Of a stretch of 64,000 nucleotides of DNA, positions 20,035 through 46,525 are shown in pieces. The stretch is taken from positions 52,462 through 116,461 of IMG/VR virus record IMGVR_UViG_3300012984_000014; one strand, written 5' to 3'. Made by a program: the position numbers and the translations under genes. The notes beneath the pieces are model-generated. The model was given only the letters and a program-made list of their open reading frames with translations. It made no database searches and had not been told where the DNA came from. Each line of letters opens with the position of its first letter. Within the stretch, counting starts at the first letter, position 1. The DNA comes from a virus.

Positions 20035-20087
20035 TCGTTCGTGATTAGCAAAAAGTTCTCGACCGATGGAAGCATCGGCACTAGAAC
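20019..20087 (+). promoter_or_regulatory. promoter-module copy 2
   Basis: TCCACA(20019); CAAAAAGTTC-TCGACC(20059)-17-TAGAAC(20082); ATG 7 nt later. Confidence 0.65.
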
Positions 20088-20094
20088 TAGCTAC

Positions 20095-21222
20095 ATGGAA
20101 GCCACAACCGATACCGTCGAAGTCAAGAAGAAGAAGCCAGGCAAGAAGGGCGAGAAGATCCCGATGAAGGCGGGCCGACCGGTGGCGCCCCCGGCAGAGC
20201 CGGGAACGGGCCGGCGCCCCACGCCTCCGGAATTCGAGGAGACCGAAGTCAAGGGCATCACCTCCGCCTGGCTCATCTGGGTGGGCTCGGAATTCTACAA
20301 GGGCATCGCCGACTGGAGCGACGAGGCCATCGCGCTCGGCATCTCCAAGCGCCTCCCGAATGCCTCGATGGCGCGCCAACTCGCGGCCCCGGGCACGGTC
20401 GTTTTCGTTGCCCACGATGAAGGTGAAAGCCACAGCTGCACCAAGTGCGTCGGAGCGTGTGAGTGTCCGAGTTGCCGCAAGCGCATCAGCGAAATGACCG
20501 CGCTGCGAAACGTGATCGCTTCGATGAAGGCCGCGTTCAAGGGGGACTTCGTGACCGAGGCGCCGCGCGGACTGAAGCGCTTCGAGGAAGTCCGCCTGCG
20601 AACCATCGCAGAGCTCGAAGCCGAGATGAAGGCTTGCGAGGAGTGCAAGGGGAAGGGTTCCATCAAGGCGGGCACCGGCGGAGAGGTGGCGCTCAAGGAC
20701 GGCCGCGTGTGGGATTATCGCACCTACAACTACTGGCTCCACCAGCCCAAGAAGTTCGATCCGGAGACGATGGTGGCCGAGGTCGAAATGTGCGAGACTT
20801 GCGGCGGGAAGGGCGACCTTCCCAATGCTCAAATCTTCGGCGTTTTCGCTCCGGAGCGCGTCGAATACATCGCCCGCGGCGACGAGACGAAGGAGGAGCT
20901 AGAAGCCCTCAAGGGCTTCAGGATCGTGGAGAAGGACGTGCTCAAGACGGAGGCCAAACGCAAGTGCGGTGTCCGGAAGGCCGGCGGCGTGTACGCGGTT
21001 ACTTCTGCCGAGGGCGCGGACGGCGACAAGCTGCTGCAGGATGCCATCAAGGCGGGCCTCGTCAAGCCGGATGGCGCCGAGGTCCACGGCTCGTTCATCC
21101 GCTTTGGGCGCCCTGTCCCGGTGGCAGAGAAGCGCTTCCGTGGATTGAAGAAGATCAACTTGGGAACGGTGCGTGAAGCTGTCGACCAAGCCGAGATGAT
21201 CGCAGAGGCGAGCGAAGCCTGA
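20095..21222 (+). CDS. multi-CxxC hypothetical protein
   Basis: Four CxxC pairs, including CEECKGKG and CETCGGKG; the track start 20041 lies inside the promoter module. Confidence 0.75.
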   Translation: MEATTDTVEVKKKKPGKKGEKIPMKAGRPVAPPAEPGTGRRPTPPEFEETEVKGITSAWLIWVGSEFYKGIADWSDEAIALGISKRLPNASMARQLAAPGTVVFVAHDEGESHSCTKCVGACECPSCRKRISEMTALRNVIASMKAAFKGDFVTEAPRGLKRFEEVRLRTIAELEAEMKACEECKGKGSIKAGTGGEVALKDGRVWDYRTYNYWLHQPKKFDPETMVAEVEMCETCGGKGDLPNAQIFGVFAPERVEYIARGDETKEELEALKGFRIVEKDVLKTEAKRKCGVRKAGGVYAVTSAEGADGDKLLQDAIKAGLVKPDGAEVHGSFIRFGRPVPVAEKRFRGLKKINLGTVREAVDQAEMIAEASEA

Positions 21223-21585
21223 TCAAGCTATGGAGGCGAGTTCAGTCAGAATTCGCCTTCGCAACTGCAGGTTGTTGAAAGGCTTCAAGAACGTCCGAAG
21301 CTCTTCACCCGGCGGAACGTCCCCGCCAGTGGTGAAGAGCGTTCGGATCTGCGGCCGTAGCGCGCGCGCTTCTTTTTCCAGTTCCAACCCGTTGCCGTCC
21401 TTCAGATAGATGTCTGTGATCAGGACGACCTTGACGTGTGGGCAGATCGTTCGCAGGATCAGGCGCGCGTTGGCAACGGTGTAGGCGGAGATGACGTCAT
21501 AGGCATCGCTTGCCAGGGAGCGAAGCAGCGCGCGAACCACCAGCGCGTCATCGTCTACAAGTAGCACAATCGCTGGCCTGTCCAT
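21223..21585 (-). CDS. single-domain (CheY-like) response regulator
   Basis: LLVDDD, LITDIYL.DGNGLEL, FTTG and LKPF: acidic pocket, phospho-Asp, Thr and Lys all present. Confidence 0.88.
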   Translation of the reverse strand: MDRPAIVLLVDDDALVVRALLRSLASDAYDVISAYTVANARLILRTICPHVKVVLITDIYLKDGNGLELEKEARALRPQIRTLFTTGGDVPPGEELRTFLKPFNNLQLRRRILTELASIA

Positions 21586-21607
21586 GGCCTCGATTATGCC
21601 CGAGCGA

Positions 21608-22150
21608 TCACAGGTGGCCTAGGACCTGATTGAACGTCGAAACGCGCAAAGCCTCACGCGGGACGGTCGCGGTGACACGTCGTCCGCCGTAGGCTCGGAA
21701 CATTCCTTCAGGGAAGGGTGCGTGGGCGTTTTTTGCAGTGTAGAAGGCGCTTCGCATCTTGCGGGCGGCCGCGATGCTTTGGACATCGACGTCGGGCGAC
21801 CCCCAGACCTCGGACGTGTAGCCGTCCTTGTGGATCTGGTACAGGCCCCAAGCGCGGCCGCGGTCGCACTCCTTCGGCCGGCAGTCGTTCCGGCGGAGGC
21901 GATCGGAGAGGGCCGTTTCAACGTAGGCGGTCGCCAGCATCGCTGCTGCCAGGATCCGGTCACCCTTCGAGGCGCTGGCGATGGCGCGCGCGAGCGCTTC
22001 CGGGTCCGTCTTCTCCTCGCGCGGCGCTAGCAGGCTTCGCTGTGCCAAGACGAGGCGATCCACCATGTTGTAGGGCTCCTTGCTGGCAGCCGGGAGCGCG
22101 ATGGCTAGGCCGGCAAGGAGGAGCAGGGAGAGGGCGAAGCGTTTGATCAT
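21608..22150 (-). CDS. secreted lytic transglycosylase/lysozyme-like protein
   Basis: AGGAG SD; signal peptide MIKRFALSLLLLAGLAIALPAA; TAYVET (catalytic Glu) and GLYQIH. Confidence 0.65.
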   Translation of the reverse strand: MIKRFALSLLLLAGLAIALPAASKEPYNMVDRLVLAQRSLLAPREEKTDPEALARAIASASKGDRILAAAMLATAYVETALSDRLRRNDCRPKECDRGRAWGLYQIHKDGYTSEVWGSPDVDVQSIAAARKMRSAFYTAKNAHAPFPEGMFRAYGGRRVTATVPREALRVSTFNQVLGHL

Positions 22151-22231
22151 GGGAGTCTCCTGAAAGCGGGGATGGTACGCTAGGTAGCGCGCGCCAACAT
22201 CTTTCCGCTGAATCGCGAACTGGCTCAATAT

Positions 22232-22302
22232 TCCACAAATGCAAAAAAAGATTGGTGAAAGGCAAAAAAGTTATCGACGTGTGGAAGCAAAAGCCGTACT
22301 AC
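22232..22302 (+). promoter_or_regulatory. promoter-module copy 3
   Basis: TCCACA(22232)..42..TGTGGA(22280); TCGACG(22274)-17-TACTAC(22297). Confidence 0.75.
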
Positions 22303-22308
22303 TTAGGC

Positions 22309-22608
22309 ATGGCAAGCAGCAAAGCAGTGAAGTTCGGCCCAGTGTTCGCTCGCGCGTCTTATACGGTGAAGGTGCGCGGGGAGCATGGGTGCGCCGTGTA
22401 TGGCAATTCAGACGTGAGTGCTCAAGTCGAGTGTTACCTTTCCACTCGACCACACGGCGTCGTGGATGTGTTCTACAGCGAGTCGTGTGGCCACTGCAGT
22501 GGCTCGGGCCGCGTCTGTACGAACCGCCGCATGATGCGCTGGGCGCCGTGCCCGGCGTGCAAGGGCAACCCCGAGATCCAGGCCGACACGCTGATCGCAA
22601 CGTTCTAA
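22309..22608 (+). CDS. small DnaJ-type Zn-finger protein (probably leaderless)
   Basis: CGHCSGSG..CPACKG; ATG 6 nt after the predicted -10. Confidence 0.65.
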   Translation: MASSKAVKFGPVFARASYTVKVRGEHGCAVYGNSDVSAQVECYLSTRPHGVVDVFYSESCGHCSGSGRVCTNRRMMRWAPCPACKGNPEIQADTLIATF

Positions 22609-22636
22609 AAAACAGAACCTGGAAGGAATCAGAAAA

Positions 22637-23173
22637 ATGTCTAAGTTCAAGCAAGTTGCTCCCGCCTCCGAACCGAAACCCCAGCCCGCTCCCGAGGCTC
22701 CTCCGATCACCAAGTACGAGATGATTGCCAAAGTCTACTCCCGCAAGAAGGAGGTGATGGAGGATTCCATCGCGGCGTTCAAGGCGAGCGTCGAGAAGGA
22801 CGGCTGCAGCTACGCCATGATCTGGAAGGGCGAGGCGGCGATGTTCGCTGAGGCGTTCCTTCGGGAGACGCACGGGATGGAGTCCTTCATCGCGCCGCGC
22901 CGGCCTCCGTACGACGCGCCAGCCAACCAGGCGGAGGAGGACGAGAACACCAAGGCGGAGGCGGCCGACATCCTCCGGATCCGGGAGGGATTCGAGCGCA
23001 TGCTGGCCAAGCACGTGAGCGACCTCCTGGGTGGCGAGTACGCGCCTGCCGACGGACCGTGGGTCGCCAACTCGACGTCTCAGATGGCCAACCTGGACAC
23101 TGTCCAGAAGGCGAACGTCAAGCGCGCGCTGTACTCGATGTACACGCAGCTCCTCGCCTGCATCGACGAATGA
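22637..23173 (+). CDS. hypothetical protein
   Basis: GGAAGG SD; phage-like codon usage. Confidence 0.75.
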   Translation: MSKFKQVAPASEPKPQPAPEAPPITKYEMIAKVYSRKKEVMEDSIAAFKASVEKDGCSYAMIWKGEAAMFAEAFLRETHGMESFIAPRRPPYDAPANQAEEDENTKAEAADILRIREGFERMLAKHVSDLLGGEYAPADGPWVANSTSQMANLDTVQKANVKRALYSMYTQLLACIDE

Positions 23174-23182
23174 TGTCATAGT

Positions 23183-23253
23183 TCCACAAGCAGAGAAAAT
23201 ATTGGAGTCTGGCAAAAAAAGTTCTCGACGTGTGGAAGCACTTAGGCTAAGGT
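23183..23253 (+). promoter_or_regulatory. promoter-module copy 4
   Basis: TCCACA(23183)..42..TGTGGA(23231); TCGACG(23225)-17-TAAGGT(23248); followed by 10-bp hairpin 23263-23285 and GAAGGAG SD. Confidence 0.78.
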
Positions 23254-23299
23254 TCTTCTTGTAGGGCGGCCGTGGCGGCCGCCCTCGGAAGGAGAGAAA

Positions 23300-30406: not shown

Positions 30407-30642
30407 GAGGCGAAGCGCTCGGGAAGGCGCTCGCCAACGACACGTTCGTGGACTTGCTAACGCTGGCCATCGACGACAAGGACCTGATCGCTGAATTCGA
30501 TCGGCTCAAGGGTCACAATCTGAGTCGCGTCGGAACACCACTAGATCTGATGATCGACGATTCGACAGGCAGAACCGAGCAGGCCCTGGACGACTTCACC
30601 GACTTCGTTTGGGACCTATCGCAGCGCATTCCGCCGCCATGA
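30403..30642 (+). CDS. small acidic protein
   Basis: GTGA/ATGA overlaps. Confidence 0.6.
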   Translation: MRGEALGKALANDTFVDLLTLAIDDKDLIAEFDRLKGHNLSRVGTPLDLMIDDSTGRTEQALDDFTDFVWDLSQRIPPP

Positions 30643-31457
30643 AGTTGGACGAACTTCGGCGCCAGTTCCGGAAGCGGACGCAGGAGGAGATCTGCGCCGA
30701 GGTGGAGAACTTCATCGCGCGCAAGCGGACCAAGATCCTGGAGCGCTGCGACTGCGGCCACCTGGTAGAGGAGCATTCCGGCCCGGACGAGCGCGCGACG
30801 TTACGCGGCACGAAGCCTGAGCTGCCGATCGGCTATTGCTACCACTGCCCTTGCACGCGGCATAATCCGATGCCGGAGCGAACCGAAGAGCTGCCCGTGA
30901 CGCTCGACCTGGACAAGGCGCGGGCCGACGCAGCCGAGACGCTACCGCTGCCAAAGGGCACGGAAGGCGCTTTTCCGGACACGACGGCTGACAAGCGCTT
31001 CGCTGAAGAATACCTGGGCGAGTTCCCCGCCGCAGAGCCTTGGGAATCGCTTCGGATCCCGTTCCCAACGCTTGTTGACGCTACGCGCGGCGACAGCAAA
31101 GTCGCCAAGACGCTTCTTGGCACGCACGCCTTGTGGGTTCCAGCAGGCGCCGAATACAAAGCGTCGGAAGCCGATCTGGTCCAGCTGAAGGGATTCTTCC
31201 ACGGCGGCGAGGTGGGCGATCTACACTTCACCGTTTGGGACGGCCGGCGTGACAGGTCTGGTCAACCAGTGCTGGTGGATGTTGGCGCGAAGCACCTTTA
31301 CATCGTCGAGCACGAGCGGTGCCCATACGAATACGTTGGCGACCGCTCCGGATCACACGCCTCTTTTCGTCGCGGTATTGATTGCCGCTTCTGCAAGAAT
31401 TTGGGGCGTGTGATCAGCTTGAAGTCGGCTCGTCTTCTACCTAGCAAAAAAGCATGA
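30639..31457 (+). CDS. hypothetical protein with Cys/His clusters
   Basis: C.CGH..EEH...C..CPC and C-terminal CRFC; overlaps. Confidence 0.65.
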   Translation: MKLDELRRQFRKRTQEEICAEVENFIARKRTKILERCDCGHLVEEHSGPDERATLRGTKPELPIGYCYHCPCTRHNPMPERTEELPVTLDLDKARADAAETLPLPKGTEGAFPDTTADKRFAEEYLGEFPAAEPWESLRIPFPTLVDATRGDSKVAKTLLGTHALWVPAGAEYKASEADLVQLKGFFHGGEVGDLHFTVWDGRRDRSGQPVLVDVGAKHLYIVEHERCPYEYVGDRSGSHASFRRGIDCRFCKNLGRVISLKSARLLPSKKA

Positions 31458-31984
31458 AGATCAGTGAATTCAAGGATCGAGCGCGCGGCGGCGAATTGAA
31501 CTCACCGCTCGTTTCCAGGCGCAAAGTACGCTGGAAAGGGCTTCATATTGGGGTCGATCCTGCTTCTGGCCCGAGTGAAAAAGTTGCTTTCGCCATCGAC
31601 GATCCGCTGGACCGATTGTTCGACCCCGACTTGCCACTTACCGGCGGACCAAAAAAGGGGCGCATTCTCTCTCCAGAGACGCCCACGATGAATGTCAAAA
31701 AACTTCCAAGGCCAGAGGTCGATGCGAGCAAGCTAGACCGCGCGCGCTCCAAGATTGATGATTGGGAGTCTATGGAAGACGACTTGCCATATGTGGCAAT
31801 CGACAAAGGCGGACGCGCGATGACCTGTAGTACTTGCGAGGGTTCGCTCGGCGATCTCGACGTCTTCTGCCCGCGTTGCATGGTGCGCGTAACGCCAGTC
31901 CGTTGTGGCTGCGATTCTACGTGGGACGGGCCGCGCGCCGATTGCGAGCGTTGCGGCGGAACGGGAGTTTGCAAATCAAAATGA
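31454..31984 (+). CDS. Zn-finger protein with terminase-like motif fragments
   Basis: HIGVDPASG and AIDDPLD; C-terminal multi-CxxC ending CERCGGTG. Confidence 0.65.
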   Translation: MKISEFKDRARGGELNSPLVSRRKVRWKGLHIGVDPASGPSEKVAFAIDDPLDRLFDPDLPLTGGPKKGRILSPETPTMNVKKLPRPEVDASKLDRARSKIDDWESMEDDLPYVAIDKGGRAMTCSTCEGSLGDLDVFCPRCMVRVTPVRCGCDSTWDGPRADCERCGGTGVCKSK

Positions 31985-31988
31985 CCAA

Positions 31989-32059
31989 AAAAATCCACAA
32001 AATGGTTTTGAAAAGCGTTGCATACATGATATTTGAAGTTTGAAATTTTGTGGATTTTT
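31989..32059. repeat. 15-bp perfect inverted repeat AAAAATCCACAAAAT/ATTTTGTGGATTTTT
   Basis: Arms 31989-32003 and 32045-32059; 41-nt AT-rich loop. Confidence 0.85.
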
Positions 32060-32326
32060 GTCTGGATTTCAACTTGGAATTTGGTTGCAAAATGGCTCGA
32101 AAAATGGCCTGGAAATCAGTCTGAATTTGGTCCCAAAATGGCGCTGAAAATGGCCTGAAATTGCCGCCGAGTTTGGGTTGGAAATGCAGCCGAAAAAGCC
32201 TCGGAATTGCCAGCGAAAAGCCCTCCCGAATTTGGAGCGAAAAGACCTCGGAATTCCGTCCGAAAACGCCTGCAGAATCAGGCGCGGATTCCAACGAAAA
32301 ACCAGGCCTAAATGCATCGCGAATTA
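32043..32326. repeat. phased A/T-tract array (about 11.6-bp period; degenerate 23-24-bp tandem unit)
   Basis: 25 GA(A/T)n-type tracts counted by eye from 32043 to 32322. Confidence 0.8.
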
Positions 32327-32735
32327 GCCCTAGGCGCGCTCGGAGTTGGAAGCCTATATATAGCGCTCCGCGCCCGCGTTGCCCTGTGAATGTGTGCACA
32401 GAAAACGGCTCGAATTTAACGCACACACTTGTGAATAGGCAGAATTTGTGCCTTTGAAAGTCAGAATCGCTCGGATTCGCCGCGCAACCACCACACACAC
32501 AAAAGCGGCCGACCGACCTGATTTTTGCAGATTCCTGGCTAATTTTCCAAATTTGCCGTTGCTGAGCCAGAATTTGGCAGAATTCGGCAGCGACGCGACG
32601 GAACGTCCCTCTGCATGGGACCGCTCCGACTCGGCCACGAGTCCGCCCGGCTAGCTTCCGCGGATTGCCCGTAAGAGGCGGAACGGGCCGCGACTCCGAG
32701 CGCTACCGCCCACGGCAGGCGGATCCAGCCTAATA

Positions 32736-32806
32736 TCCACAAAGTTGAGAAAAAGAACGGCGCTACCAAAAAAGTTCTCGACTTGTGGAAGCAGAAGCCT
32801 TATGGT
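32736..32806 (+). promoter_or_regulatory. promoter-module copy 5
   Basis: TCCACA(32736)..42..TGTGGA(32784); TCGACT(32778)-17-TATGGT(32801). Confidence 0.8.
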
Positions 32807-32859
32807 CTCTCCTGTCGCCGAACGAACCGGCGGGAAGCCGCCCCGAAGGAGAGAAGACG

Positions 32860-33201
32860 ATGGAAAAAGCCGAAAAAGTGGTAGAAGCCGTGAAGTTTGC
32901 CCCGTTCCAGTCGACCGATTGGATGGGTTACGCCGGGTGCGAGGCGTTTCCGGACGGCTCCGAGCCGATTATTGGCTACCTCGAAGTGGACGGGAACCTC
33001 GCGGTGGCGATTCTCGACGGAATCGGCCTCGGGGTCCACGTGGAAGTTCCGACGGGTGACGACGAAGAGATGCACGAGGAGACGGAAACGGAGGAGTATT
33101 ACTGGGACGGGCCCGCGGCCGGAGGGCGCGCCCTCGCGTTCCTTCGCCCGGAGATGGCCTCCGGAGATCTACTCGCCCTAAACCCCACGGTGAAGCCGTG
33201 A
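32860..33201 (+). CDS. small highly acidic protein
   Basis: GAAGGAG SD; 23 D/E vs 6 K/R in 113 aa. Confidence 0.75.
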   Translation: MEKAEKVVEAVKFAPFQSTDWMGYAGCEAFPDGSEPIIGYLEVDGNLAVAILDGIGLGVHVEVPTGDDEEMHEETETEEYYWDGPAAGGRALAFLRPEMASGDLLALNPTVKP

Positions 33202-33572
33202 GCGCGAAGAAAGCGGTTTCCCATTCGTGGGAGGATTCGCGAACGGTCGTTTTCTCGGCGCGCGCTACCACCCACAGCCGGGCGTTCTCCGGCTCCGCTC
33301 GCCTAGTCGCCTACACGGGAAGCGACCCCAAGATCGGAGGGGCCGCGCTCGTTTCGTTCGTCGAGCCGGAGGCCAAATCGGCCGTCCAGCTGATGTGCTC
33401 CTACTCGGGAGGGGTCGCGGAAGCGGTCCTAGTCGCGGCCGGCCTCCGGAAGACGCTGAAGCTCGCCCCGATCTCGGCCGCGTACGCGGACCTAGGCGGG
33501 CCGGTCGGAATCGCAGAGGATTCGCTACGGGACGGGACGGGAGTCTTCAAGATCGTCTTCTATCGGCGCTAG
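33198..33572 (+). CDS. hypothetical protein
   Basis: GTGA overlap; ends just before promoter copy 6. Confidence 0.65.
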   Translation: MSAKKAVSHSWEDSRTVVFSARATTHSRAFSGSARLVAYTGSDPKIGGAALVSFVEPEAKSAVQLMCSYSGGVAEAVLVAAGLRKTLKLAPISAAYADLGGPVGIAEDSLRDGTGVFKIVFYRR

Positions 33573-33581
33573 CCACAATCT

Positions 33582-33652
33582 TCCACCAACTACAAAAAAG
33601 ATTGGTGGAAGGCAAAAAAGTTCTCGATTTGTGGAAGCAGAAGCCGTACTTA
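33582..33652 (+). promoter_or_regulatory. promoter-module copy 6
   Basis: TCCACC(33582)..42..TGTGGA(33630); TCGATT(33624)-17-TACTTA(33647). Confidence 0.75.
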
Positions 33653-33658
33653 TAGGGC

Positions 33659-33817
33659 ATGGACGCCGAAACCCGCCGAGCCCCCGAAGAAACCGGAACC
33701 GACTCCACGCCCGTCGCGATGGGAACGATCGGCTTCGATTGGTACCTAGCGGCCATCGGCTTCTCGCCCGAGGCGCTTCGCGCGGCTCGCGTCCCCTCCT
33801 TCCAAGAAAGCCTCTGA
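33659..33817 (+). CDS. 52-aa protein (probably leaderless)
   Basis: Hand-translated MDAETRRAPEETGTDSTPVAMGTIGFDWYLAAIGFSPEALRAARVPSFQESL*. Confidence 0.55.
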   Translation: MDAETRRAPEETGTDSTPVAMGTIGFDWYLAAIGFSPEALRAARVPSFQESL

Positions 33818-33818
33818 A

Positions 33819-34034
33819 ATGACCACCGACACCCTCCTAGTCCAAGCGATCAAGGACTCTCTCCACCTCCGCGTTCGGAAGCACCTAGAGATCTGGAAAA
33901 CGGTCAGCGCGCGCTACCCGGATGTGGCCTATGAGCGCTTCGACCGGATGATGGGGAAGCTCGAAATGGACGAAGTCATCACTTTGACCGGTTCGCGCGG
34001 CCCGAACGCCTACAAACTCCAAGGAGAAGCGTGA
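33819..34034 (+). CDS. small protein, possible winged helix
   Basis: 71 aa; GTGA overlap. Confidence 0.6.
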   Translation: MTTDTLLVQAIKDSLHLRVRKHLEIWKTVSARYPDVAYERFDRMMGKLEMDEVITLTGSRGPNAYKLQGEA

Positions 34035-34360
34035 AAATGGCCTCTATTAGCGATCTAGCTAGCTCGGAAGTCACTCGGCTCGTGGCCGATAACTTCAAAA
34101 AGACCCAGCGCGGCCCTCGCCCTGCCGGCGCTCCCTTCGTGGACGTCGCCTTCATCCCCGGGCGAAAGAAGGCCGTCCTAGTCCTCGTCAACGGAGAGGG
34201 CGCGGACGAGTACAGGCGCGGGAAGACTTTCGCCGCGACCCTAACCACGAAAGGCTGGAAGCCGCTCCCGGCGATGAACGCGCTTTCCGGAAAGAAGATC
34301 TACACGGACGCGGAAGCGGCCGAGGCCGTTCGCGCCCTCTTCGCGGCGGTCGAACGATGA
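34031..34360 (+). CDS. hypothetical protein
   Basis: AAGGAG SD; overlaps. Confidence 0.65.
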   Translation: MKMASISDLASSEVTRLVADNFKKTQRGPRPAGAPFVDVAFIPGRKKAVLVLVNGEGADEYRRGKTFAATLTTKGWKPLPAMNALSGKKIYTDAEAAEAVRALFAAVER

Positions 34361-34566
34361 GCGCGCGGTTCGTAGGCGTTAAGCGCACGAGAAGCCACGT
34401 AGGCGCGCCGCTACCGCCCCACATGGCCCACGCTCCGACGCTCTCCAAGGGCGCGCGGAAGGGCGCTCCGGAGCCGGCTAGCGCGCTCCTTCCGGACGGA
34501 ACGGAAGGCCCGAAGGAGGGCGAAGACTTCGTGGAATGGTTCCTCCGGCGCGAAGGCGCCAAATAA
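34357..34566 (+). CDS. hypothetical protein
   Basis: ATGA overlap; stop abuts promoter copy 7. Confidence 0.55.
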   Translation: MSARFVGVKRTRSHVGAPLPPHMAHAPTLSKGARKGAPEPASALLPDGTEGPKEGEDFVEWFLRREGAK

Positions 34567-34637
34567 TCCACAGTTTCCAAAAAAGATTGGGACGCTACAA
34601 AAAAGTTCTCGACTTGTGGAAGCATCGGGCCTATACC
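34567..34637 (+). promoter_or_regulatory. promoter-module copy 7
   Basis: TCCACA(34567)..42..TGTGGA(34615); TCGACT(34609)-17-TATACC(34632). Confidence 0.8.
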
Positions 34638-34645
34638 TACTTTCG

Positions 34646-34780
34646 ATGAAGAACACGACCAACCCGAAGCTAACCGCCCTCCGAATCCAAGCGCGCACCG
34701 CCCTCCGATTGGCCCAAAAGGCCCAAATGGCCGAACTCAATGCGAAAGCCGCCAAAAACGAGAAAGGTTCCAGCAAATGA
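34646..34780 (+). CDS. 44-aa basic helical peptide (probably leaderless)
   Basis: Hand-translated MKNTTNPKLTALRIQARTALRLAQKAQMAELNAKAAKNEKGSSK*; ATGA overlap. Confidence 0.55.
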   Translation: MKNTTNPKLTALRIQARTALRLAQKAQMAELNAKAAKNEKGSSK

Positions 34781-35226
34781 CCCTCCCGATCCAGACCCTA
34801 AACGCCATCGACTCCATCGCCTCTAGCGCTATCGCCACCGAAGTCCTCATCAAGCGCGCGCGCCAAGGGCGCTTCCGCTTCTATGGGTGGGAATACGCCA
34901 CCGCGAAGGTCACCCGCGTCACTAAAGCTCGCATTTTCGTCAAGGGAACGTGGGAAGGGGCAAGCGAGCGCGAGTTCAACCGCTCGGACCTCATCGAACG
35001 ATCCGGAGAAAAGTTCAACCGCGCAGAGCTCATCGTCGACCCCGAGCTCATCGCGAAAGCGCGCGCCGAAGAGGCGGCCGAGAAGGCCCGTCGAGCCCTC
35101 GAACAAAATGGTCTAGTCGCCCTCCTAGGCATCCGGAAGCTCTTCGACGAAGACGCCATCAAGGGCCGCTCGGACGGAGAGATACAGGCCCTTATCGCGG
35201 CCGCGGCCGACCTAGGTGTCCTGTGA
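34777..35226 (+). CDS. hypothetical protein
   Basis: 149 aa; overlaps on both sides. Confidence 0.7.
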   Translation: MTLPIQTLNAIDSIASSAIATEVLIKRARQGRFRFYGWEYATAKVTRVTKARIFVKGTWEGASEREFNRSDLIERSGEKFNRAELIVDPELIAKARAEEAAEKARRALEQNGLVALLGIRKLFDEDAIKGRSDGEIQALIAAAADLGVL

Positions 35227-35450
35227 AGCTCATCCCGGTCGGGAACGTCCGGAAGGGCGACCGCCTACGCGCCTCCGACGAGTCGAAAGAGCTTAAAACC
35301 GTGGCATACGTCGCCAACGCGCGCGTATCCGGCTACAAAGTGGCGGTATTCGAGGACGGCTCCCAGCGGGCGCTCGGGCACCGGACGGGGTTTGCCACAG
35401 TCTACCCGGCCGAGCCCGTCGCGGAATCTCCACAAAACCTACACAAGTAG
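35223..35450 (+). CDS. small beta-rich protein
   Basis: GTG start in a GTGA overlap; V.NVRKGDRL. Confidence 0.55.
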   Translation: MKLIPVGNVRKGDRLRASDESKELKTVAYVANARVSGYKVAVFEDGSQRALGHRTGFATVYPAEPVAESPQNLHK

Positions 35451-35510
35451 GTATAAAAGTTCCACACCTCCAAAAAAGTTCTCGACTTGTGGAAGCAGCG
35501 GACGTATACC
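35440..35510 (+). promoter_or_regulatory. promoter-module copy 8
   Basis: TACACA(35440)..42 and TCCACA(35461)..21..TGTGGA(35488); TCGACT(35482)-17-TATACC(35505). Confidence 0.8.
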
Positions 35511-35517
35511 TATCTAC

Positions 35518-35736
35518 ATGGACAACACCACCGCCACCGAGTCGACCGAAACCGCCACCGCTCGCGCCCAAGGCATCGCCATCGCCAACGACCGTTGCTG
35601 GACGAAAGACCAGCTAATCGCGATGGCCACCTACGGATTCAAGGGCTCGACGGGCTACCCGGAGGGCTCCGACCTCCACTTTGTGGTCCTCTGCGCCGCG
35701 AACGACGAAGCCAAGCGCCTTACGGCCGGTTTCTGA
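35518..35736 (+). CDS. 72-aa protein (probably leaderless)
   Basis: ATG 7 nt after the -10; MDNTTATESTETAT... Confidence 0.65.
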   Translation: MDNTTATESTETATARAQGIAIANDRCWTKDQLIAMATYGFKGSTGYPEGSDLHFVVLCAANDEAKRLTAGF

Positions 35737-35800
35737 AAGCCGCCTGCCGCGCCGATTCGCCTCCGCGCCTCCCGGCCCGGGGGCTTTCGGCGTTAGGAGA
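35735..35800 (+). other. conserved intergenic structured element, copy A
   Basis: TCGCCTCCGCGCC...GGCTTTCGGCGTTAG shared with 36756-36796. Confidence 0.55.
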
Positions 35801-35808
35801 CCACATAA

Positions 35809-36237
35809 ATGTCCAAATATAGCGTCCGCTACGTCCACAAGATCGCGCCCTCCACGAACGACACAGGCCCGGACGTCGAGATCCCCAACGGGGCGTTCTC
35901 GGACTCGAAGACCCTAGCGTCCGTCCTACGCGCGGCCGGCGTACTCGCCTCTGGCGCGCGGGTGGCTACGTTCCGCGTAGAGGGCGATAAAACCATCGTC
36001 TTCCCGTTCCTTCCCGGTTCCACCACCTATTGGCACGCGGTGATTCTAGGCCCAGTAGCGGTCCAGGAATCGCCCAAGGCCTCGATCACTCCAGAATTCG
36101 AGAATCAGTGCCTTTCGATCGGTCGGGAGTTCCTTCCCGCGGTCGCCATCCAGGTATTGGAAAACGGCGGCACGAATTCGCCCGAGGAACAGGCCGAATA
36201 CGAGGCTTGGCTCCGCTCCCAATTGGAGGCGTCGTGA
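35809..36237 (+). CDS. hypothetical protein
   Basis: AGGAG SD; 142 aa. Confidence 0.7.
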   Translation: MSKYSVRYVHKIAPSTNDTGPDVEIPNGAFSDSKTLASVLRAAGVLASGARVATFRVEGDKTIVFPFLPGSTTYWHAVILGPVAVQESPKASITPEFENQCLSIGREFLPAVAIQVLENGGTNSPEEQAEYEAWLRSQLEAS

Positions 36238-36419
36238 AACGCCTCCTGGGCATTACGGTCGCCCGGGCCATCGTCTCGGGCGACGTCGATCGGGCGAGGC
36301 GGGAAGCGGGCGGAAGGCGCTCGTGGACCGTTCCCGAGGCGCGCGCGATTGTCGGCGCGTGTCGAGCGGCTCGCGCTCGCTTCCCGGGGTGCGCCGTCGA
36401 TTCACGCGAGTTCTTTTAG
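36234..36419 (+). CDS. small Arg-rich protein
   Basis: GGAGG SD; GTGA overlap. Confidence 0.5.
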   Translation: MKRLLGITVARAIVSGDVDRARREAGGRRSWTVPEARAIVGACRAARARFPGCAVDSREFF

Positions 36420-36428
36420 AGCCTACTT

Positions 36429-36499
36429 TCCACAAAGTAGATATAATCGACCGCGCCTACAAAAAAAGTCTCGACTTGTGGAAGCAACGGCCGTATACC
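36429..36499 (+). promoter_or_regulatory. promoter-module copy 9
   Basis: TCCACA(36429)..42..TGTGGA(36477); TCGACT(36471)-17-TATACC(36494). Confidence 0.8.
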
Positions 36500-36506
36500 T
36501 ATCTAC

Positions 36507-36740
36507 ATGGACATCACGACCCACACCGACGCAAACGAGAACCGCAAGATCGTCATCGACCTCGCGGATGGCATCCACCTCGAATACAGCCCGGAGACGG
36601 AACCGCGCTGCGTCGAGGTCATCGACGGGAAGATCTTCACGACGACTCAAGAGGCCGCAGAGGAGCTAGCCTCCGAGATGCGCGCCTGGGGCGTAAAGCC
36701 GGCGCGCCCCCTCGGCTTCGCGGTCGTCTTCTGGGGCTAA
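36507..36740 (+). CDS. 77-aa acidic protein (probably leaderless)
   Basis: ATG 7 nt after the -10. Confidence 0.65.
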   Translation: MDITTHTDANENRKIVIDLADGIHLEYSPETEPRCVEVIDGKIFTTTQEAAEELASEMRAWGVKPARPLGFAVVFWG

Positions 36741-36796
36741 CGCGCTCCGCTCCCGCTCGCCTCCGCGCCCTAGGGTCTGGAGGCTTTCGGCGTTAG
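36737..36796 (+). other. conserved intergenic structured element, copy B
   Basis: CTAACGC/GCGTTAG and GCCTCC/GGAGGC pairings; shared motifs with copy A. Confidence 0.55.
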
Positions 36797-36800
36797 AACC

Positions 36801-37160
36801 ATGAAAAACCTCATCCTCGCCATCCTCGCCATCCTCGCCCTCGTCATCCTCGTTTCGGCCAGCCCGGCCCAGGCACGAGCGACTAGCTACGAAAGCGCCA
36901 TCGCTTCCGCCCACGCCTCCGGCGCGTGCTACGTCGTCCAGACCTCTTTCGGCTGGGTCGTCGTCCAGGAATGCGACGACGAACGCGAGCAATCGCTCCC
37001 GGATAGCCATATTCTGATGTCTTGGGCCGATTCCCCGTGCGCGTTAGCCGGTGAAGAGGCGCTCGCCTCCGAGGTCGATGGCGAGGAATTCGACTTTGAC
37101 TCCACCTATGAATGGGCTTTCGACGCTTGCGAGCGCGATACGGCCTTGGATTGCCAGTAA
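36801..37160 (+). CDS. secreted acidic Cys-containing protein
   Basis: Signal peptide MKNLILAILAILALVILVSASPAQA; acidic mature part with 5 Cys. Confidence 0.7.
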   Translation: MKNLILAILAILALVILVSASPAQARATSYESAIASAHASGACYVVQTSFGWVVVQECDDEREQSLPDSHILMSWADSPCALAGEEALASEVDGEEFDFDSTYEWAFDACERDTALDCQ

Positions 37161-37175
37161 TTGGAAGGCAGACAG

Positions 37176-37400
37176 ATGAATAAGCCAAGAATGACCAAGA
37201 AGACGCGCCATTTCCTCGAATTCGTCCGGGAGAACCCGGGCCTCAACGCGCTCCGGATCCACCGCGCGATTGGCCACCTCTACACGCGGAACGGTCACCA
37301 GTTCACCTACGCAACGCTCAAGCGAATGGTAAAAAACGGCCTCGCTACGCGCGGCCCGTCGGCGAACGGCCGCGGATTCGGCATCCACCCCGTCGGCTAG
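37176..37400 (+). CDS. small winged-helix-like protein
   Basis: FLEFVRENPG....IHRAI...TYATLKRMVKNGL. Confidence 0.55.
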   Translation: MNKPRMTKKTRHFLEFVRENPGLNALRIHRAIGHLYTRNGHQFTYATLKRMVKNGLATRGPSANGRGFGIHPVG

Positions 37401-37407
37401 AGCCTAA

Positions 37408-37480
37408 TCTACAAAGTTCGTCAAAAAGATTGGTCGAGAGCAAAAAAGTTCTCGACGTGTGGAAGCAGAAGGATTAGGTT
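37408..37480 (+). promoter_or_regulatory. promoter-module copy 10
   Basis: TCTACA(37408)..44..TGTGGA(37458); TCGACG(37452)-17-TAGGTT(37475); 5' hairpin 37488-37506. Confidence 0.75.
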
Positions 37481-37527
37481 TCTCTTCGAGGCCGGCGGAC
37501 GGCCTCCGAAAGCCCAAGGACAAGAAA

Positions 37528-37953
37528 ATGGAAAAGCTCGAAACCAAAAAAGCCCTCCTCCTCGCCCTCGCCTCCGCCCTTACCGCGCTCGGATGGAGCG
37601 CGACGATTGAACCGCTTCTTCAAATCCTCCGCGTTCCCGGCTTCCCGGCGCTCCGGACCCCGGAAGTCCGTTTCTCCGGCGCGCCGTCGAGTCCAGACGT
37701 GCGCTTCGTTTGGCACGGATACACCGCCAAGAAGCCGGAAACGATGGCCGCGCGCATCGCGGAAGTCCTAAAAAAGGAGGCGGACGCGCAGAAGGAAGCC
37801 GAGGCCAAGCGGACCACGCCGATCCACCTAACGGCCGCGGAACGCGAGGCTTTGGAAGCGCTCGTACAGACGCGGATCGCCTCGCTTCCCGCTTCTTGGC
37901 CCGCTCGGGCCGCGTTGGAGAACGTTCTAGCCAAGCTCGGGGTGGCGTCGTGA
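37528..37953 (+). CDS. hypothetical protein
   Basis: AAGGA SD; the track extension to 37459 runs through the promoter. Confidence 0.65.
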   Translation: MEKLETKKALLLALASALTALGWSATIEPLLQILRVPGFPALRTPEVRFSGAPSSPDVRFVWHGYTAKKPETMAARIAEVLKKEADAQKEAEAKRTTPIHLTAAEREALEALVQTRIASLPASWPARAALENVLAKLGVAS

Positions 37954-38219
37954 GCGATTCCAACAAACTCCCAAGGAATAAGCGCCTTCAGGAGATTCAC
38001 CGCCTCAATCCCCCGAATCCCGTGGCAGAATTCGACAAGAATAAGGCGCGCGCGCTCTCGAAAGTGGCGCACGAGCAGGTATCGGGCCCGCTCCTTTGGG
38101 CTTCCGAGGCAAATTCCAAGAAGGAGCTCCTAGACCAGCTAGAAGCGGCTGAAACGGCGCTAGAGCTCCTCTACGAGTCTGTAAAAAGCTTTCGGCGCGA
38201 CGTCCGGAGGGGCGAATGA
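37950..38219 (+). CDS. hypothetical protein
   Basis: GTGA/ATGA overlaps. Confidence 0.55.
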   Translation: MSDSNKLPRNKRLQEIHRLNPPNPVAEFDKNKARALSKVAHEQVSGPLLWASEANSKKELLDQLEAAETALELLYESVKSFRRDVRRGE

Positions 38220-38365
38220 GCCCCGTAAAGGCAGCGCTAGCGGCGCTCCGCCAGCACGATGGCGACGTCGACAAGGCGACCGCGGAAACCGGCCTCCTTC
38301 GCTCCTTCGTGGCCGACATCGCCCGGCAATTCGCGGACTACCTCCGCCCTCGGACGGCAAAATGA
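38216..38365 (+). CDS. 49-aa protein, HTH-like
   Basis: Hand-translated MSPVKAALAALRQHDGDVDKATAETGLLRSFVADIARQF...; coupled overlaps. Confidence 0.5.
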   Translation: MSPVKAALAALRQHDGDVDKATAETGLLRSFVADIARQFADYLRPRTAK

Positions 38366-38502
38366 GCGCGCGTATCGTTTCCGCGGCGGACGATTGGCAC
38401 ACCGCCTACATCGGCGCGCGCCGAATCGGCGACTATTCCACTTGGGAGCGCGCTCGCGAGGCGCTCCGCCGACAAGGGTGGTTCGTGGAGGACGGAAAGT
38501 GA
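38362..38502 (+). CDS. 46-aa protein
   Basis: Hand-translated MSARIVSAADDWHTAYIGARRIGDYSTWERAREALRRQGWFVEDGK*. Confidence 0.5.
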   Translation: MSARIVSAADDWHTAYIGARRIGDYSTWERAREALRRQGWFVEDGK

Positions 38503-38783
38503 AGCCGATTCTCCTTCGGCTCGCCTACCTCCTTGGGAGAAAGGTCGGGAAACTCTCCCGGAAGCGCCAGGAGCGCGCTCGCCGGAGACTCGAAGCGGGC
38601 AGAAACACGAACGGCGCGCTGCCCGCCTTCGTCTTCTCTGGGTGCGTAACGGCCCGAGAACGCCACGAGCCAATATCTATTGCATTCGACTCCCAAGAGG
38701 CGACGATCGCTGACGTAATCGACATCCTAGAGCGAGGAACGCCCAAGGTTAAGCCGCGAAGACGCAGGAGGACCGCGCAATGA
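38499..38783 (+). CDS. basic hypothetical protein
   Basis: GTGA/ATGA overlaps. Confidence 0.5.
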   Translation: MKPILLRLAYLLGRKVGKLSRKRQERARRRLEAGRNTNGALPAFVFSGCVTARERHEPISIAFDSQEATIADVIDILERGTPKVKPRRRRRTAQ

Positions 38784-38947
38784 GCCGAGCAAAGGCCGTG
38801 GAGACGCTCCGGAAGAGGCGCGACCGAGCGCTAAGGGCGCTGAAGTCCCAACGACGGACGGCGAAACCGAGCGAACTAGCCGCCATCGCCGAGAAAGAAG
38901 CGACGATCCAGCGCGCTTACGAGTCCGAGCGCTGGATCTTAGGGTGA
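38780..38947 (+). CDS. 55-aa basic helical protein
   Basis: AGGAGG SD; hand-translated MSRAKAVETLRKRRDRALRALK... Confidence 0.55.
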   Translation: MSRAKAVETLRKRRDRALRALKSQRRTAKPSELAAIAEKEATIQRAYESERWILG

Positions 38948-38959
38948 AAAGAGGGCAAA

Positions 38960-39229
38960 ATGTCCAACAATTGGTGCAAAGAGTGTGAGCATTTAGCCAT
39001 CCCGTGCGCGGCCTGCGAGGAGAAGGCCTCCAAAGAGCGGCTCGAACGTCTCGAACGGATCAAAACGCCCATAGCCGCCAGCCTTCCAGGCCGCGCCACC
39101 CATTTCGAGCACACCCCAGGGAAGCTCGCTTGTGGCCTCGTAAGCTCCTCCGCGCTCCGAACGTCCGAGTTTCCAAGAGTTGATTGCAATAGCTGCCGAA
39201 GACGCGCCCTAGCGCGCCGTTTCGTCTAG
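38960..39229 (+). CDS. small Cys-rich protein
   Basis: CKEC..PCAAC; LACG..VDC.SC. Confidence 0.6.
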   Translation: MSNNWCKECEHLAIPCAACEEKASKERLERLERIKTPIAASLPGRATHFEHTPGKLACGLVSSSALRTSEFPRVDCNSCRRRALARRFV

Positions 39230-40122
39230 GGTAATTGGGTTAGACGTCGCTCGCCCTCCCCTTGGATGGAGTAGCCGAGCCCCCGAAAGCGGAAAAGAGA
39301 AACGACCCGAAGCCGGAAGGAGCCTAACCCGCCCTTTCCGGCTTTCCTGCGTTCCGCTGTGCCCTTCTGCGCGCTTTCGCGCTTCCCGCAGCCCGTCCTC
39401 CACGCCGCCCTCCGGAAGCGCGTTTAAGCGCCTCCTAGCGTCTCCGCGCTCCAACGGCCGATGAGAATCGACCGAGCGCTTGAGCGCTCGCCTCCAGAAA
39501 GCCAACGCCTTGTGCCTAAACGGCCCGTTACGGCGTTTTCGCATCGTCTCATGGACGAGAGTGTGCGGAGCCCGCCGAGACGATTCTTGCCATCGTTCTG
39601 TGCCAAAACGCCCTAAGCGCCCAAATTCGCCCTTTCGCCGATTCCCATCGTTCCGCCGCTCCGCGCCTCCTCGTCCACCCAACCCCTTGGAAGAATCACC
39701 ACCAGAACCGAACGAACCGAGATAGCCTCCGCCGTTCTACGCTGCCCGCCGTTTGCGCGTACGTGTGTTCTTTTACGCTCTCGAACGCCTCCGGAGCGCT
39801 TCGTTGTTCCGCTTTCGAAGGCTCGGAATTGACCAAATCTCGGCTCCGGAAACCCCGTGGATTGTCCGGCACACACATCCTGCAGGCACGCCTTGGCCAT
39901 CCCGGTCCATGGTGCATCCACCTGCCAAACGCCACCATTTTGTGGGTAAGCGGAGGTCGCCTGGATGGAGAATTTGTGGCGTTTCTCGGCTCCCGAGGGT
40001 AAGTCAAGTTACACAGAGAGGGTAATTGGGGTGGAATTGCCGATTGTGTACGTATCGTGGACAACGGTCACGTACGGACCTGAAATGGCCCTGGGAAAAC
40101 TTCTGGCTCCCCAGCGCGTACG

Positions 40123-40397
40123 TAACTCTATTACCCTATTAGGAGGATTGCAATAGTAATATCCATAAGATAATGCATATATCGAGTAACCCTATTACCC
40201 TATGTAACTCTATTACCCTATTAGAGTAGGGCCGACAGCACCTCGGCAAGAAGAGCCTATTAGGGTAATTGGGTTACAGTGGAATGGTAAGAGCGTTACA
40301 TCGAGTCGGCCGCTCGTCTAACCCAATTACCCTAGGGTAAGAGCGTTACGCCTAACCCTATTACCCTATAGCTATACAGTGTAACCCTATTACCCTA
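40123..40397. repeat. array of about 9 iteron-like 16-bp repeats (TAACYCWATTACCCTA) in both orientations; candidate origin or terminal signal
   Basis: + copies at 40123, 40187, 40205, 40319, 40353, 40382; - copies at 40261, 40286 (degenerate), 40333 (degenerate); AT-rich 40150-40185. Confidence 0.85.
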
Positions 40398-40629
40398 GCG
40401 CCTAGCGTACGCTATCGTGGATGGTCTATGGTGTCGTGCCTACCTACCTACCACCCACACACCACGTATATAGCTATATAGTGTCCAAATTGCCTACGAA
40501 ACTGGACAACATGGCTTGATTAGCCACGCCTACCCACCCCACTGTGGATGTTTTCTGGAAAAACCCCCGTGCGGCGCCCATGTCTGGGCGGCTCGGAATG
40601 CACACGCCGCTCGGACACCCCAATGCACA

Positions 40630-40699
40630 TCCACAAAACGAACTTTCTTTCCATAGCGTTGACTTTTCGCTCGACGCCCTCCCGCGCATCCACTATACC
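40630..40699 (+). promoter_or_regulatory. promoter-module copy 11 (divergent)
   Basis: TCCACA(40630); TCGACG(40671)-17-TATACC(40694). Confidence 0.6.
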
Positions 40700-40710
40700 T
40701 ACCGACACAC

Positions 40711-40908
40711 ATGACAACCGAACAACTCGAAGAACGCCAAGCACTCGCGGACGACATCGCGACCTCCTCCAAAGCAATCACCATCGCTCTGGAGTGCGCG
40801 GTTTCGTGCGAGACGGAAACCGACTTCATCGCCAACCTCGAAGACGCCGAGGCCCAGCTGGTGGACATGCTCCGTGAAGTCCGCGAGCTGAAGGCCACCC
40901 GTGGCTGA
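40711..40908 (+). CDS. small acidic helical protein
   Basis: First gene after the promoter; 65 aa. Confidence 0.65.
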   Translation: MTTEQLEERQALADDIATSSKAITIALECAVSCETETDFIANLEDAEAQLVDMLREVRELKATRG

Positions 40909-41137
40909 CGCAAAAAAGTACTGGAACGACAGTGCGCAACTCGCAAACTTCGCCGCTCGCATCCGACGCGAGTGGGGGCCGTGTTGGCACATAATGGTGC
41001 CCGCAATACGCGCGGCTGTCGTGGACCAATTCACTCTTGGCGTAATCCGTAGCCAAGAGCGAGAGAGCGTGCCCATGGCCGCAATCGACGAATTGGCACA
41101 GGCGATGCACGCCGCTATGGGAACAGAAAACGCCTGA
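40901..41137 (+). CDS. hypothetical protein
   Basis: Overlaps the previous stop. Confidence 0.55.
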   Translation: MADAKKYWNDSAQLANFAARIRREWGPCWHIMVPAIRAAVVDQFTLGVIRSQERESVPMAAIDELAQAMHAAMGTENA

Positions 41138-41252
41138 TCAGCCAAGAAGGCGCAAACCCAGTAAACACATTTCACCAGACAGTCGTCCTATCGCGCCCCG
41201 GCGACGCGCACCACGCCCGGGACGCTCCACTCATTCGAGGAACAGCAACAAC

Positions 41253-45593: not shown

Positions 45594-45808
45594 GCCAGGA
45601 GGCGCAAGCCTTCCCCGGCGAGCCGACCCCGAGCGAGCGGATCGCCATCGCGACGGCGCGCGTTGCACGAAGGAAGCAGGAGCTGGACAATGCCGTGGCC
45701 GAGTACGCCCTGGCCTGCCAAACGCTCGCCGTTGCCATCGAGCGCGCAGATCGCTTCCACGAGGCTCAGACCAACCCGGCGAACGAGAAGCCCGACGATC
45801 CAGCCTAA
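45590..45808 (+). CDS. small coiled-coil protein
   Basis: GTGA overlap; stop abuts promoter copy 12. Confidence 0.6.
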   Translation: MSQEAQAFPGEPTPSERIAIATARVARRKQELDNAVAEYALACQTLAVAIERADRFHEAQTNPANEKPDDPA

Positions 45809-45810
45809 TA

Positions 45811-45879
45811 TCCACAGACTCAAAAAAAGATTCCACAGGTCAAAAAAGTTCTCGACGCCTGGAAGGGAAAGGTTATGCT
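45811..45879 (+). promoter_or_regulatory. promoter-module copy 12
   Basis: TCCACA at 45811 and 45832; CAAAAAAGTTC-TCGACG(45852)-16-TATGCT(45874). Confidence 0.7.
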
Positions 45880-45886
45880 TAGGAAC

Positions 45887-46525
45887 ATGAACAAGCTCAT
45901 CCCCATCATCACAATCGCGTTCCTAGTCTTTGGCTGCAGCATGCCGGTCGAACAACCGCCCGCGGGAACGCCCGCGGAGCCGTGTCCGGTCGTGGAACCG
46001 CCGGTCCAGCAGGGCCCCGGCGTCAACCTCCCCACCGAGATTCAGATCTCTCCCGACTTCTCGGCGGAGCAGTTGGCGGGCATCCTTGAGGCTATTCACG
46101 ACTGGAGTGATCGCACGTACGGGGTCGCCAAGCTCAACCCGGTCATCGGTACGAATCCGGACGCGCCCTGCCAGCTCAATCCCGTTGACCACTTCGAGCC
46201 GGAGGAGGTCCACCGTGGCGGGCTCGCGAGCGGAAGCGGCATCCACTGTTCCATCCAGCTGGCGACCTCGGTCATCAAGCTGATCGACGCGCGGAAGACC
46301 TGGAACCAGGACACGGAGATGCTCGAAAAGAGCGACAACGACGTCACCGGCGTCACACGCATCTTCGCCCTGAAGCAGTTCGGGGCCATCTTTGGGATTC
46401 CACAGCTCGAAACGGGTCTGATGAGCGAGAACTACGACAAGAGCGACGACTTGGACGACCCGGCGCTGGCAGCCTTCTGCGGCCTCCACGAGTGCCCGAA
46501 CGGCTTCAAGGCTGGTGCACAGTGA
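45887..46525 (+). CDS. lipoprotein with matrixin/metzincin-like fold lacking Zn ligands
   Basis: Lipobox LVFGC; ALKQFGAIFGIPQ aligns with ALHEFGHALGLxH; Met-turn GLM. Confidence 0.6.
   Translation: MNKLIPIITIAFLVFGCSMPVEQPPAGTPAEPCPVVEPPVQQGPGVNLPTEIQISPDFSAEQLAGILEAIHDWSDRTYGVAKLNPVIGTNPDAPCQLNPVDHFEPEEVHRGGLASGSGIHCSIQLATSVIKLIDARKTWNQDTEMLEKSDNDVTGVTRIFALKQFGAIFGIPQLETGLMSENYDKSDDLDDPALAAFCGLHECPNGFKAGAQ

Follow-up and report, generated by a model that had tools for sequence, protein, structure and literature searches.

A promoter-dense block of small genes in a novel soil myovirus, probably part of an early-gene hyperplastic region built of mobile cassettes

The subject of this report is a block of closely spaced promoters and small genes in IMGVR_UViG_3300012984_000014, a soil virus record of 116,461 bp in IMG/VR. 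The stretch of DNA analyzed, referred to here as the window, comprises the last 64 kb of that record (64,000 nt), and all positions are window coordinates unless marked as genome. The block itself spans 31989–40710, corresponding to ~8.7 kb or 7.5% of the genome. A first-pass annotation, made from the letters of the sequence, had placed it between two large non-coding regions, one with bent DNA (32.0–32.7 kb) and the other with a repeat array (39.2–40.7 kb). It had also credited the block with six promoter copies at ~0.9–1 kb spacing, about 22 tiny orphan open reading frames (ORFs) and a distinct codon usage. These features were borne out, with amendments to the distribution of the promoter and to the orphan status of the ORFs that are given below. 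What did not hold up was the proposal that the block is a terminal repeat.

The genome is ~60% G+C, with nearly all of its genes on the + strand. Encoded proteins include a DnaE-type polymerase (phrog_405), a UvsX-like recombinase, SbcCD, helicases, a tail sheath, a tape measure, a portal and a large terminase. This gene set identifies the virus as a contractile-tailed phage (myovirus). The large terminase belongs to the T7 family: it matches phrog_38 at an E-value of 4e-86, and its nearest solved structure is T7 gp19 (4bij, 2e-9). Its GenBank matches are mostly T7-like phages, although identity to T7 itself is distant (<30%). No near relative was found among GenBank phages, and a near-identity search with the block gave no match. 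The virus is a novel 116-kb contractile-tailed soil phage without a cultured relative.

The most conspicuous feature of the block is a repeated promoter module. Six 26-nt cores, starting at 32768, 33614, 34599, 35472, 36461 and 37442, carry 0–2 mismatches and are spaced 846–989 nt apart, with all six modules falling within 4.7 kb. The module is not confined to the block, as four further strong copies lie to either side of it (Table 1). In addition, a weaker variant occurs at 40655–40700, where TCGACG and TATACC are separated by 17 nt and followed by an ATG at 40711. All ten strong copies are intergenic, on the + strand and located in the small-gene part of the genome (window 20–46 kb). The module is also the only strongly repeated intergenic motif of the genome.

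For comparison, relatives were taken from nine soil contigs retrieved by a promoter scan of Joint Genome Institute (JGI) metagenomes, among them L009, L012, L013, L014 and L015. Alignment of the ten copies from this genome with 17 from the relatives yielded the following layout: TTCCACAA, ~20 nt, AAAAAGATT, a second TTCCACA-like site in either orientation, AAAAAAGTT CTCGAC nTGTGGAAGCA, 7 nt and TAnnnn. The whole measures ~77–95 nt, with an A6 tract where an UP element would be expected, CTCGAC without variation at −35 and, after a spacer of 17 nt, a TAnnnn −10 hexamer. In seven of the ten copies, including four of the six in the block, the ATG of an unrelated gene follows 6–8 nt past the −10 hexamer, and the same is true of most copies in the relatives. 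An ATG at the predicted transcription start implies that transcripts of these seven modules would be leaderless. The remaining three copies are followed by a 50–60-nt leader with a hairpin and a Shine-Dalgarno site. We regard the module as a promoter, and the fixed position of the ATG is the strongest argument for this assignment.

Each module also contains two or three TTCCACA-like sites, at about −85, −55 and −30, one of which is located within the spacer. The related heptamer TCCACAA occurs 21 times in the window versus an expected 5.2 ± 2.2, a fourfold over-representation, and is found mostly in the modules and at the borders of the block. In the copy at 33614, the first and second sites form a 13-bp hairpin (33579–33612; free energy −20.8, z −4.6). 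However, the middle site is forward in some copies and reversed in others (e.g., the modules at 33566–33659 and 45794–45887), which argues for protein-binding sites and against a hairpin. A single factor probably binds these sites and switches the entire set of promoters.

Scans of IMG/VR with the promoter (at two stringencies), with the iteron of the right border described below and with a flanking 272-aa protein returned nothing or single chance matches without other similarity. The promoter likewise had no match in 185,579 prokaryote genomes, and therefore no clue to the host was obtained.

The genes behind the six modules are small. There are 21 + strand ORFs in 32860–39229, encoding products of 44–149 aa (median ~75), and two of these (38499–38783 and 38960–39229) have weak coding scores. 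None of the 21 was matched by Pfam or PHROGs, and no protein paralogy was detected between the units of the block. The orphan label is too strong for at least one of them, since the 149-aa product of 34777–35226 has ~20 homologous metagenomic clusters at 50% identity. PF24203, a phage ProQ C-terminal-like domain, was matched by 11 of 18 aligned members of this family, but not by the 34777–35226 product itself. A single-sequence AlphaFold model of the product was poor, with a predicted local distance difference test (pLDDT) score of 47, whereas an alignment-based model reached 92.5 and consists of a small beta domain and a long helical hairpin. Foldseek found no match for the latter model in the PDB. 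At most, these observations hint at RNA binding. For the product of 35809–36237, the ESM Atlas offered nothing usable. The small product of 37161–37400 is a candidate DNA-binding protein, and by eye ORFs 36801–37160 and 37528–37953 have N-termini that resemble signal peptides or membrane anchors.

The distinct codon usage of the block proved to be real. Its Jensen-Shannon divergence from the rest of the genome is 0.039, as compared with 0.0097 ± 0.0019 (maximum 0.015) for size-matched random sets of small genes. The shift is mainly one of C over G at codon positions 2 and 3, with no change in G+C at third positions (GC3).

Both sides of the block are marked by unusually long non-coding DNA. 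On the left, the full gap of 875 nt (31985–32859) is one of the three largest in the genome. It contains a perfect inverted pair of TCCACAA, as well as 290 bp of A/T tracts (32040–32330) phased at 11.6 bp, with a spectral power of 10.1 versus a maximum of 1.04 in shuffled sequence. This signal, which corresponds to the bent DNA first described, occurs nowhere else in the window; TRF reports periods of 12 and 23–24. As a side observation, a phasing of 11.4–11.6 bp exceeds the helical repeat. Positions 31990–32170 are 73–90% identical to L009, which is above the identity of the adjacent genes. At 3600–3950, L009 retains an 11.4-bp phasing where sequence identity drops to 40–50%, pointing to a shape-based function.

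On the right, a gap of 1481 nt (39230–40710) without coding potential in any of the six frames is the longest of the genome. The repeat array consists of nine to ten copies of a 16-mer (TAACCCTATTACCCTA and variants) in both orientations, at 39227–39242 and 40119–40401, and the 16-mer has no other copy in the genome. Positions 40143–40185 form an AT-rich patch. Given this patch and the iterons, the right border can fairly be proposed as a replication origin. Taken with the phased, curved DNA of the left border, these features suggest that both of the conserved borders are cis-acting, one as a packaging or entry site and the other as a replication origin.

Some further features of the borders are of note. 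The 730 nt at 39230–39960 show a strong bias of C over G (GC skew of about −0.15), contain no ORF with coding potential and have no Rfam match; this stretch may represent a non-coding RNA or the leader of a transcript. Immediately ahead of the left border lies ORF 31454–31984, which has a low coding score and four CxxC pairs. In its L009 homologue (L009 1786–3501), the matching N- and C-terminal parts are separated by ~1.3 kb of additional sequence. Neither an Rfam family nor a tRNA was detected in the window, and PHROGs gave no useful function for ten larger genes to the right of the block or for the genes to its left.

Table 1. Coordinates of the promoter modules and borders in the window
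Feature	Position	Strand	Remarks
Left non-coding border	31985–32726		17-nt inverted pair around TCCACAAAAT (31989–32060); phased A/T tracts 32040–32330; second conserved core ~32350–32470
Promoter module 1	32727–32803	+	50–60-nt leader, hairpin, Shine-Dalgarno site; ORFs 32860–33201, 33198–33572
Promoter module 2	33573–33649	+	Predicted leaderless, ATG 6 nt after −10; 13-bp hairpin just upstream of A-tract; ORFs 33659–33817, 33819–34034, 34031–34360, 34357–34566
Promoter module 3	34558–34634	+	Predicted leaderless; ORFs 34646–34780, 34777–35226, 35223–35450
Promoter module 4	35431–35507	+	Predicted leaderless; ORF 35518–35736, hairpin 35762–35796, ORF 35809–36237
Promoter module 5	36420–36496	+	Predicted leaderless; ORF 36507–36740, hairpin 36762–36796, ORFs 36801–37160, 37161–37400
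Promoter module 6	37401–37477	+	Leader, hairpin, Shine-Dalgarno site; ORFs 37528–37953, 37950–38219, 38216–38365, 38362–38502, 38499–38783 (weak), 38780–38947, 38960–39229 (weak, Cys-rich)
Right non-coding border	39230–40710		C-rich left part 39230–39960; 16-mer array; palindromes; AT-rich patch; variant promoter
Second promoter cluster	20001–23260	+	Cores 20049, 22264, 23215; block-gene homologues here in relatives
Diverged module copy	45794–45887	+	Core 45842; predicted leaderless, ATG at 45887

L009 and L012 are collinear with the window over the left border and into the block; they are without 33819–34776, and their later genes are in a different order. L013 and L014 are collinear with the window over 13.7–24.4 kb, and the promoter cluster in this region is expanded. 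In these two contigs, the cluster equivalent to window 22–24 kb holds homologues of seven block genes: those starting at 35223, 33659, 34031, 36507 (91% aa identity), 33819 (80%), 32860 and 33198. Homologues of block genes are found at other promoter sites in L013, L014 and L015, and the 35223 family stands behind three different promoters in three genomes. Breakpoints can also be located. For instance, the single module at window 23215 corresponds to two modules in L013 (9334 and 10038) that flank a 679-nt insert. Within the block, slots 4 and 5 have the promoter, the initial codons and a post-ORF hairpin in common at an offset of exactly 1000 nt, while the ORF bodies between these shared parts are unrelated; post-ORF hairpins occur in these two slots only. 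Comparison with the relatives thus shows promoter–ORF cassettes that appear to have been gained, lost and transferred from one promoter site to another, and the module is where the breakpoints fall.

The block occurs once in the genome. In Logan contigs and unitigs from four soil runs (X1–X4), its unitig depth is 0.85–1.08× that of the flanks: 34.4 versus 31.9 in X1, 16–17 versus 19–20 in X2, 8.6–10.5 versus 10.2–10.5 in X3 and 30–33 versus 37–38 in X4. An internal control is provided by an exact 33-nt repeat at window 31032–31064 and genome 45903–45935, the latter ~6.5 kb before the window start and ~38 kb upstream of the former. The two copies lie inside different coding genes, a 272-aa ORF (30639–31457) and a 670-aa CobT/vWA-like gene, and the repeat splits the assembly graph in all four runs, where it forms a separate node. 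In the three runs where this node is listed, its depth is 80 (X1), 30.7 (X2) and 24.5 (X3), or 1.7–2.6× the flanks, and a two-copy sequence would therefore have been seen. The graph branch at 31032–31064 had been considered as a possible co-occurring relative; this was rejected, since it is an internal repeat of the same genome.

Nor are the ends of the record the ends of the genome. One ORF reads in frame across the end and start of the record (window 63412–63999 joined to genome 3–509), and its two halves match positions 3–179 and 218–303 of a single capsid-protein profile, phrog_1623. A capsid gene split over the record ends means that these are not genome ends, and the record is a circular permutation opened within this gene. 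The split gene also has an apparent immunoglobulin-like insertion (phrog_807 match in the second half).

With a probability of roughly 0.6, we consider the block to be the densest part of a single-copy early-gene hyperplastic region built of mobile promoter–ORF cassettes. Six transcription units, each opening with the same module, would carry the 21 small accessory genes, and host RNA polymerase would presumably read all six soon after entry. In four of the six block units, and at seven of the ten modules overall, the messages would lack a leader. One factor acting at the TTCCACA sites probably switches the whole promoter set. As seen by comparison with the relatives, the repeated modules serve as recombination points for the gain, loss and transfer of cassettes. 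Of the two borders, one may be a packaging or entry site and the other a replication origin.

The closest known parallel is found in T4-type phages. Their promoter-early stem-loop (PeSL) cassettes carry strong sigma-70-like promoters with an A/T-rich upstream part, precede ORFans in hyperplastic regions and are points of exchange (Arbiol et al. 2010, PMC2839356; Comeau et al. 2014, PMC4122927). The module described here is likewise a repeated sigma-70-type promoter with an A/T-rich upstream part, conserved in all 27 aligned copies. It too precedes small genes without known function that are concentrated in variable regions, and insertions and replacements between relatives break in it. There are also clear differences. 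The lineage is not T4-type, having a DnaE-type polymerase, a T7-family terminase, a G+C content of 60% and a soil origin. The block module exceeds the PeSL promoter in length, is far more uniform (26 nt are almost invariant) and has two or three TTCCACA sites instead of a G/C stem-loop. Its units are mostly predicted to be leaderless rather than Shine-Dalgarno-led, and six of them stand in tandem. Given the unrelated lineage and a stem-loop that is present only in part, the block would work like a PeSL region without being one by descent.

Several observations weigh against the cassette interpretation. A scan for consensus promoters and terminators performed at chance level. Its sigma-70 search did not call the modules, because the −10 hexamer is often without its final T and the −35 matches at four of six positions, and no canonical terminators were found between the units. 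The stable stem-loop that is part of the PeSL definition is clear in some copies only, and some insertions and deletions between relatives are not bounded by a module; L009, for example, joins its homologues of 33659 and 34777 directly. Nor does an array of cassettes account for two properties of the block, its deviating codon usage and its negative GC skew. Finally, the early timing and promoter activity of the block units are themselves read from the sequence.

Among the alternatives, the one that survives best is compatible with the cassette interpretation and adds a claim about the genome ends. It holds that the genome is linear, with short direct repeats at its termini, and that the block is the entry module at its leading end. 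The physical left end would then lie in the left border, and the six promoters would enter first, their transcription perhaps helping to draw in the genome. The left end of T7 combines a short terminal repeat, repeat arrays, the tandem promoters A1–A3 and early genes, and a similar layout can be made out here. Strong, host-type tandem promoters face inward behind a conserved, 740-nt untranslated border with curved DNA, almost all genes are on one strand in a one-way order, and the terminase is of the T7 family. For these reasons a leading end can fairly be proposed for the left border. The cumulative GC skew also has its global maximum at ~32–33.5 kb, but its pattern is not simple enough, and skew was dropped as a guide to origin or ends.

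Against such a leading end, contigs from the four runs and the relatives L009 and L012 continue straight through the left border. The implied order of early block, small genes, structural genes and replication genes is unlike that of T7, early-type promoters would also sit 9–12 kb from the other end, and the similarity of the terminase to that of T7 is distant. The phage further differs from T7 in being a myovirus and in the lack of a phage RNA polymerase among the large proteins scanned. Contigs bridge both borders in the four runs, but this is uninformative with regard to ends, because bridging is also expected for a collapsed short repeat or a concatemer. In two of the four runs, depth is raised 1.3–1.9× near the right border, at 40185–40667 in X2 (31.7 versus 16–20) and at 40017–41214 in X4 (44–47 versus 33–38). 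Graph branches occur at 40185–40214 and 40638–40667, with a cluster of strain single-nucleotide polymorphisms at 39743–40350. The raised depth at 40.0–41.2 kb could represent a short terminal repeat, a tandem duplication or an ultra-conserved core common to diverged strains. On balance, a leading end of the T7 type is possible, if rather unlikely.

Less probable still is a single-copy entry unit formed by the two borders and the six inward-facing promoters. Here the leading end would lie on the left, the right border, equipped with iterons, palindromes and TCCACA sites, would pause or gate entry or else start replication, and one TTCCACA-binding factor would switch the early promoters. If true, this would amount to a programme resembling first-step transfer in a contractile-tailed phage without a long terminal repeat.

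The first-pass annotation had preferred a long terminal repeat with host-takeover genes, or a T5-type first-step-transfer segment that ends in an injection-stop signal. The appeal of this proposal is easily seen. A segment of this size, with small genes without known function and dense, strong promoters, recalls the takeover module of the large myovirus SPO1, where ~20–26 small early genes are arranged in several short operons, each with a strong host-type promoter (PMC6873191). The T5 pre-early segment similarly makes up ~8% of the genome, has small genes and terminates in an extensive untranslated region full of palindromes and of repeats, both direct and inverted (Davison 2020, bioRxiv 10.1101/866236), much as the right border is untranslated and rich in repeats and palindromes. 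The injection-stop region of T5 contains paired consensus DnaA boxes, and TCCACA is the core of a DnaA box. The resemblances to T5 and SPO1 are likenesses in layout only.

Several lines of evidence tell against this proposal. The block has the depth of its flanks in all four runs while the 33-mer control is raised to ~2×, and an 8.7-kb terminal redundancy is therefore very unlikely, with the caveat that intracellular, replicating concatemer DNA carries a terminal repeat once and would read as 1×. The assembly closes into a circle elsewhere, and in the relatives the genes of the block are located at other sites. A T7-family terminase goes with short repeats, not with repeats of 9–13 kb. Unlike the takeover genes of SPO1, the block is single-copy and outside a terminal redundancy. 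Unlike the T5 segment, it is not in a long terminal repeat and belongs to a phage with a contractile tail. No homologues of T5 dmp, A1 or A2, or of SPO1 gp37–60, were found among the 21 ORFs with Pfam and PHROGs. The strict DnaA box, TTWTNCACA, has no match in the genome, in which only the TCCACA core is enriched. A block such as this, which has the look of a terminal repeat but is single-copy, is easily mis-annotated, and the present result amends that. The suggestion of a host-takeover module fares somewhat better: the block does resemble a set of small accessory genes driven early by host RNA polymerase, as judged from its sequence, but Pfam and PHROGs revealed no counterparts of the takeover genes of T5 and SPO1.

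It is equally hard to credit a recently acquired foreign island or a tandem gene amplification, for although either would account for the deviating codon usage and GC skew, and the units are ~1 kb each with shared flanks in slots 4 and 5, the block does not differ from the genome in GC3 or in coding score per codon, and the units show no protein paralogy. Moreover, the promoter belongs to the phage itself, which uses it at other sites too, and the left border and first units recur at the same location in a relative.

To our knowledge, T4-type phages of Gram-negative hosts are the only ones for which the shuffling of small early genes by way of repeated promoter cassettes has been worked out. 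The block described here would extend the same cassette logic to an unrelated, high-G+C soil myovirus without a cultured relative. Distinguishing features of its module are its great uniformity, its content of up to three copies of one short site and an arrangement mostly set for leaderless translation. If confirmed, promoter-mediated cassette exchange would be a general means by which phages replace early genes directed at the host with new ones, and the module would serve as a marker with which to pull such genes from soil metagenomes for anti-defence and toxicity screens.

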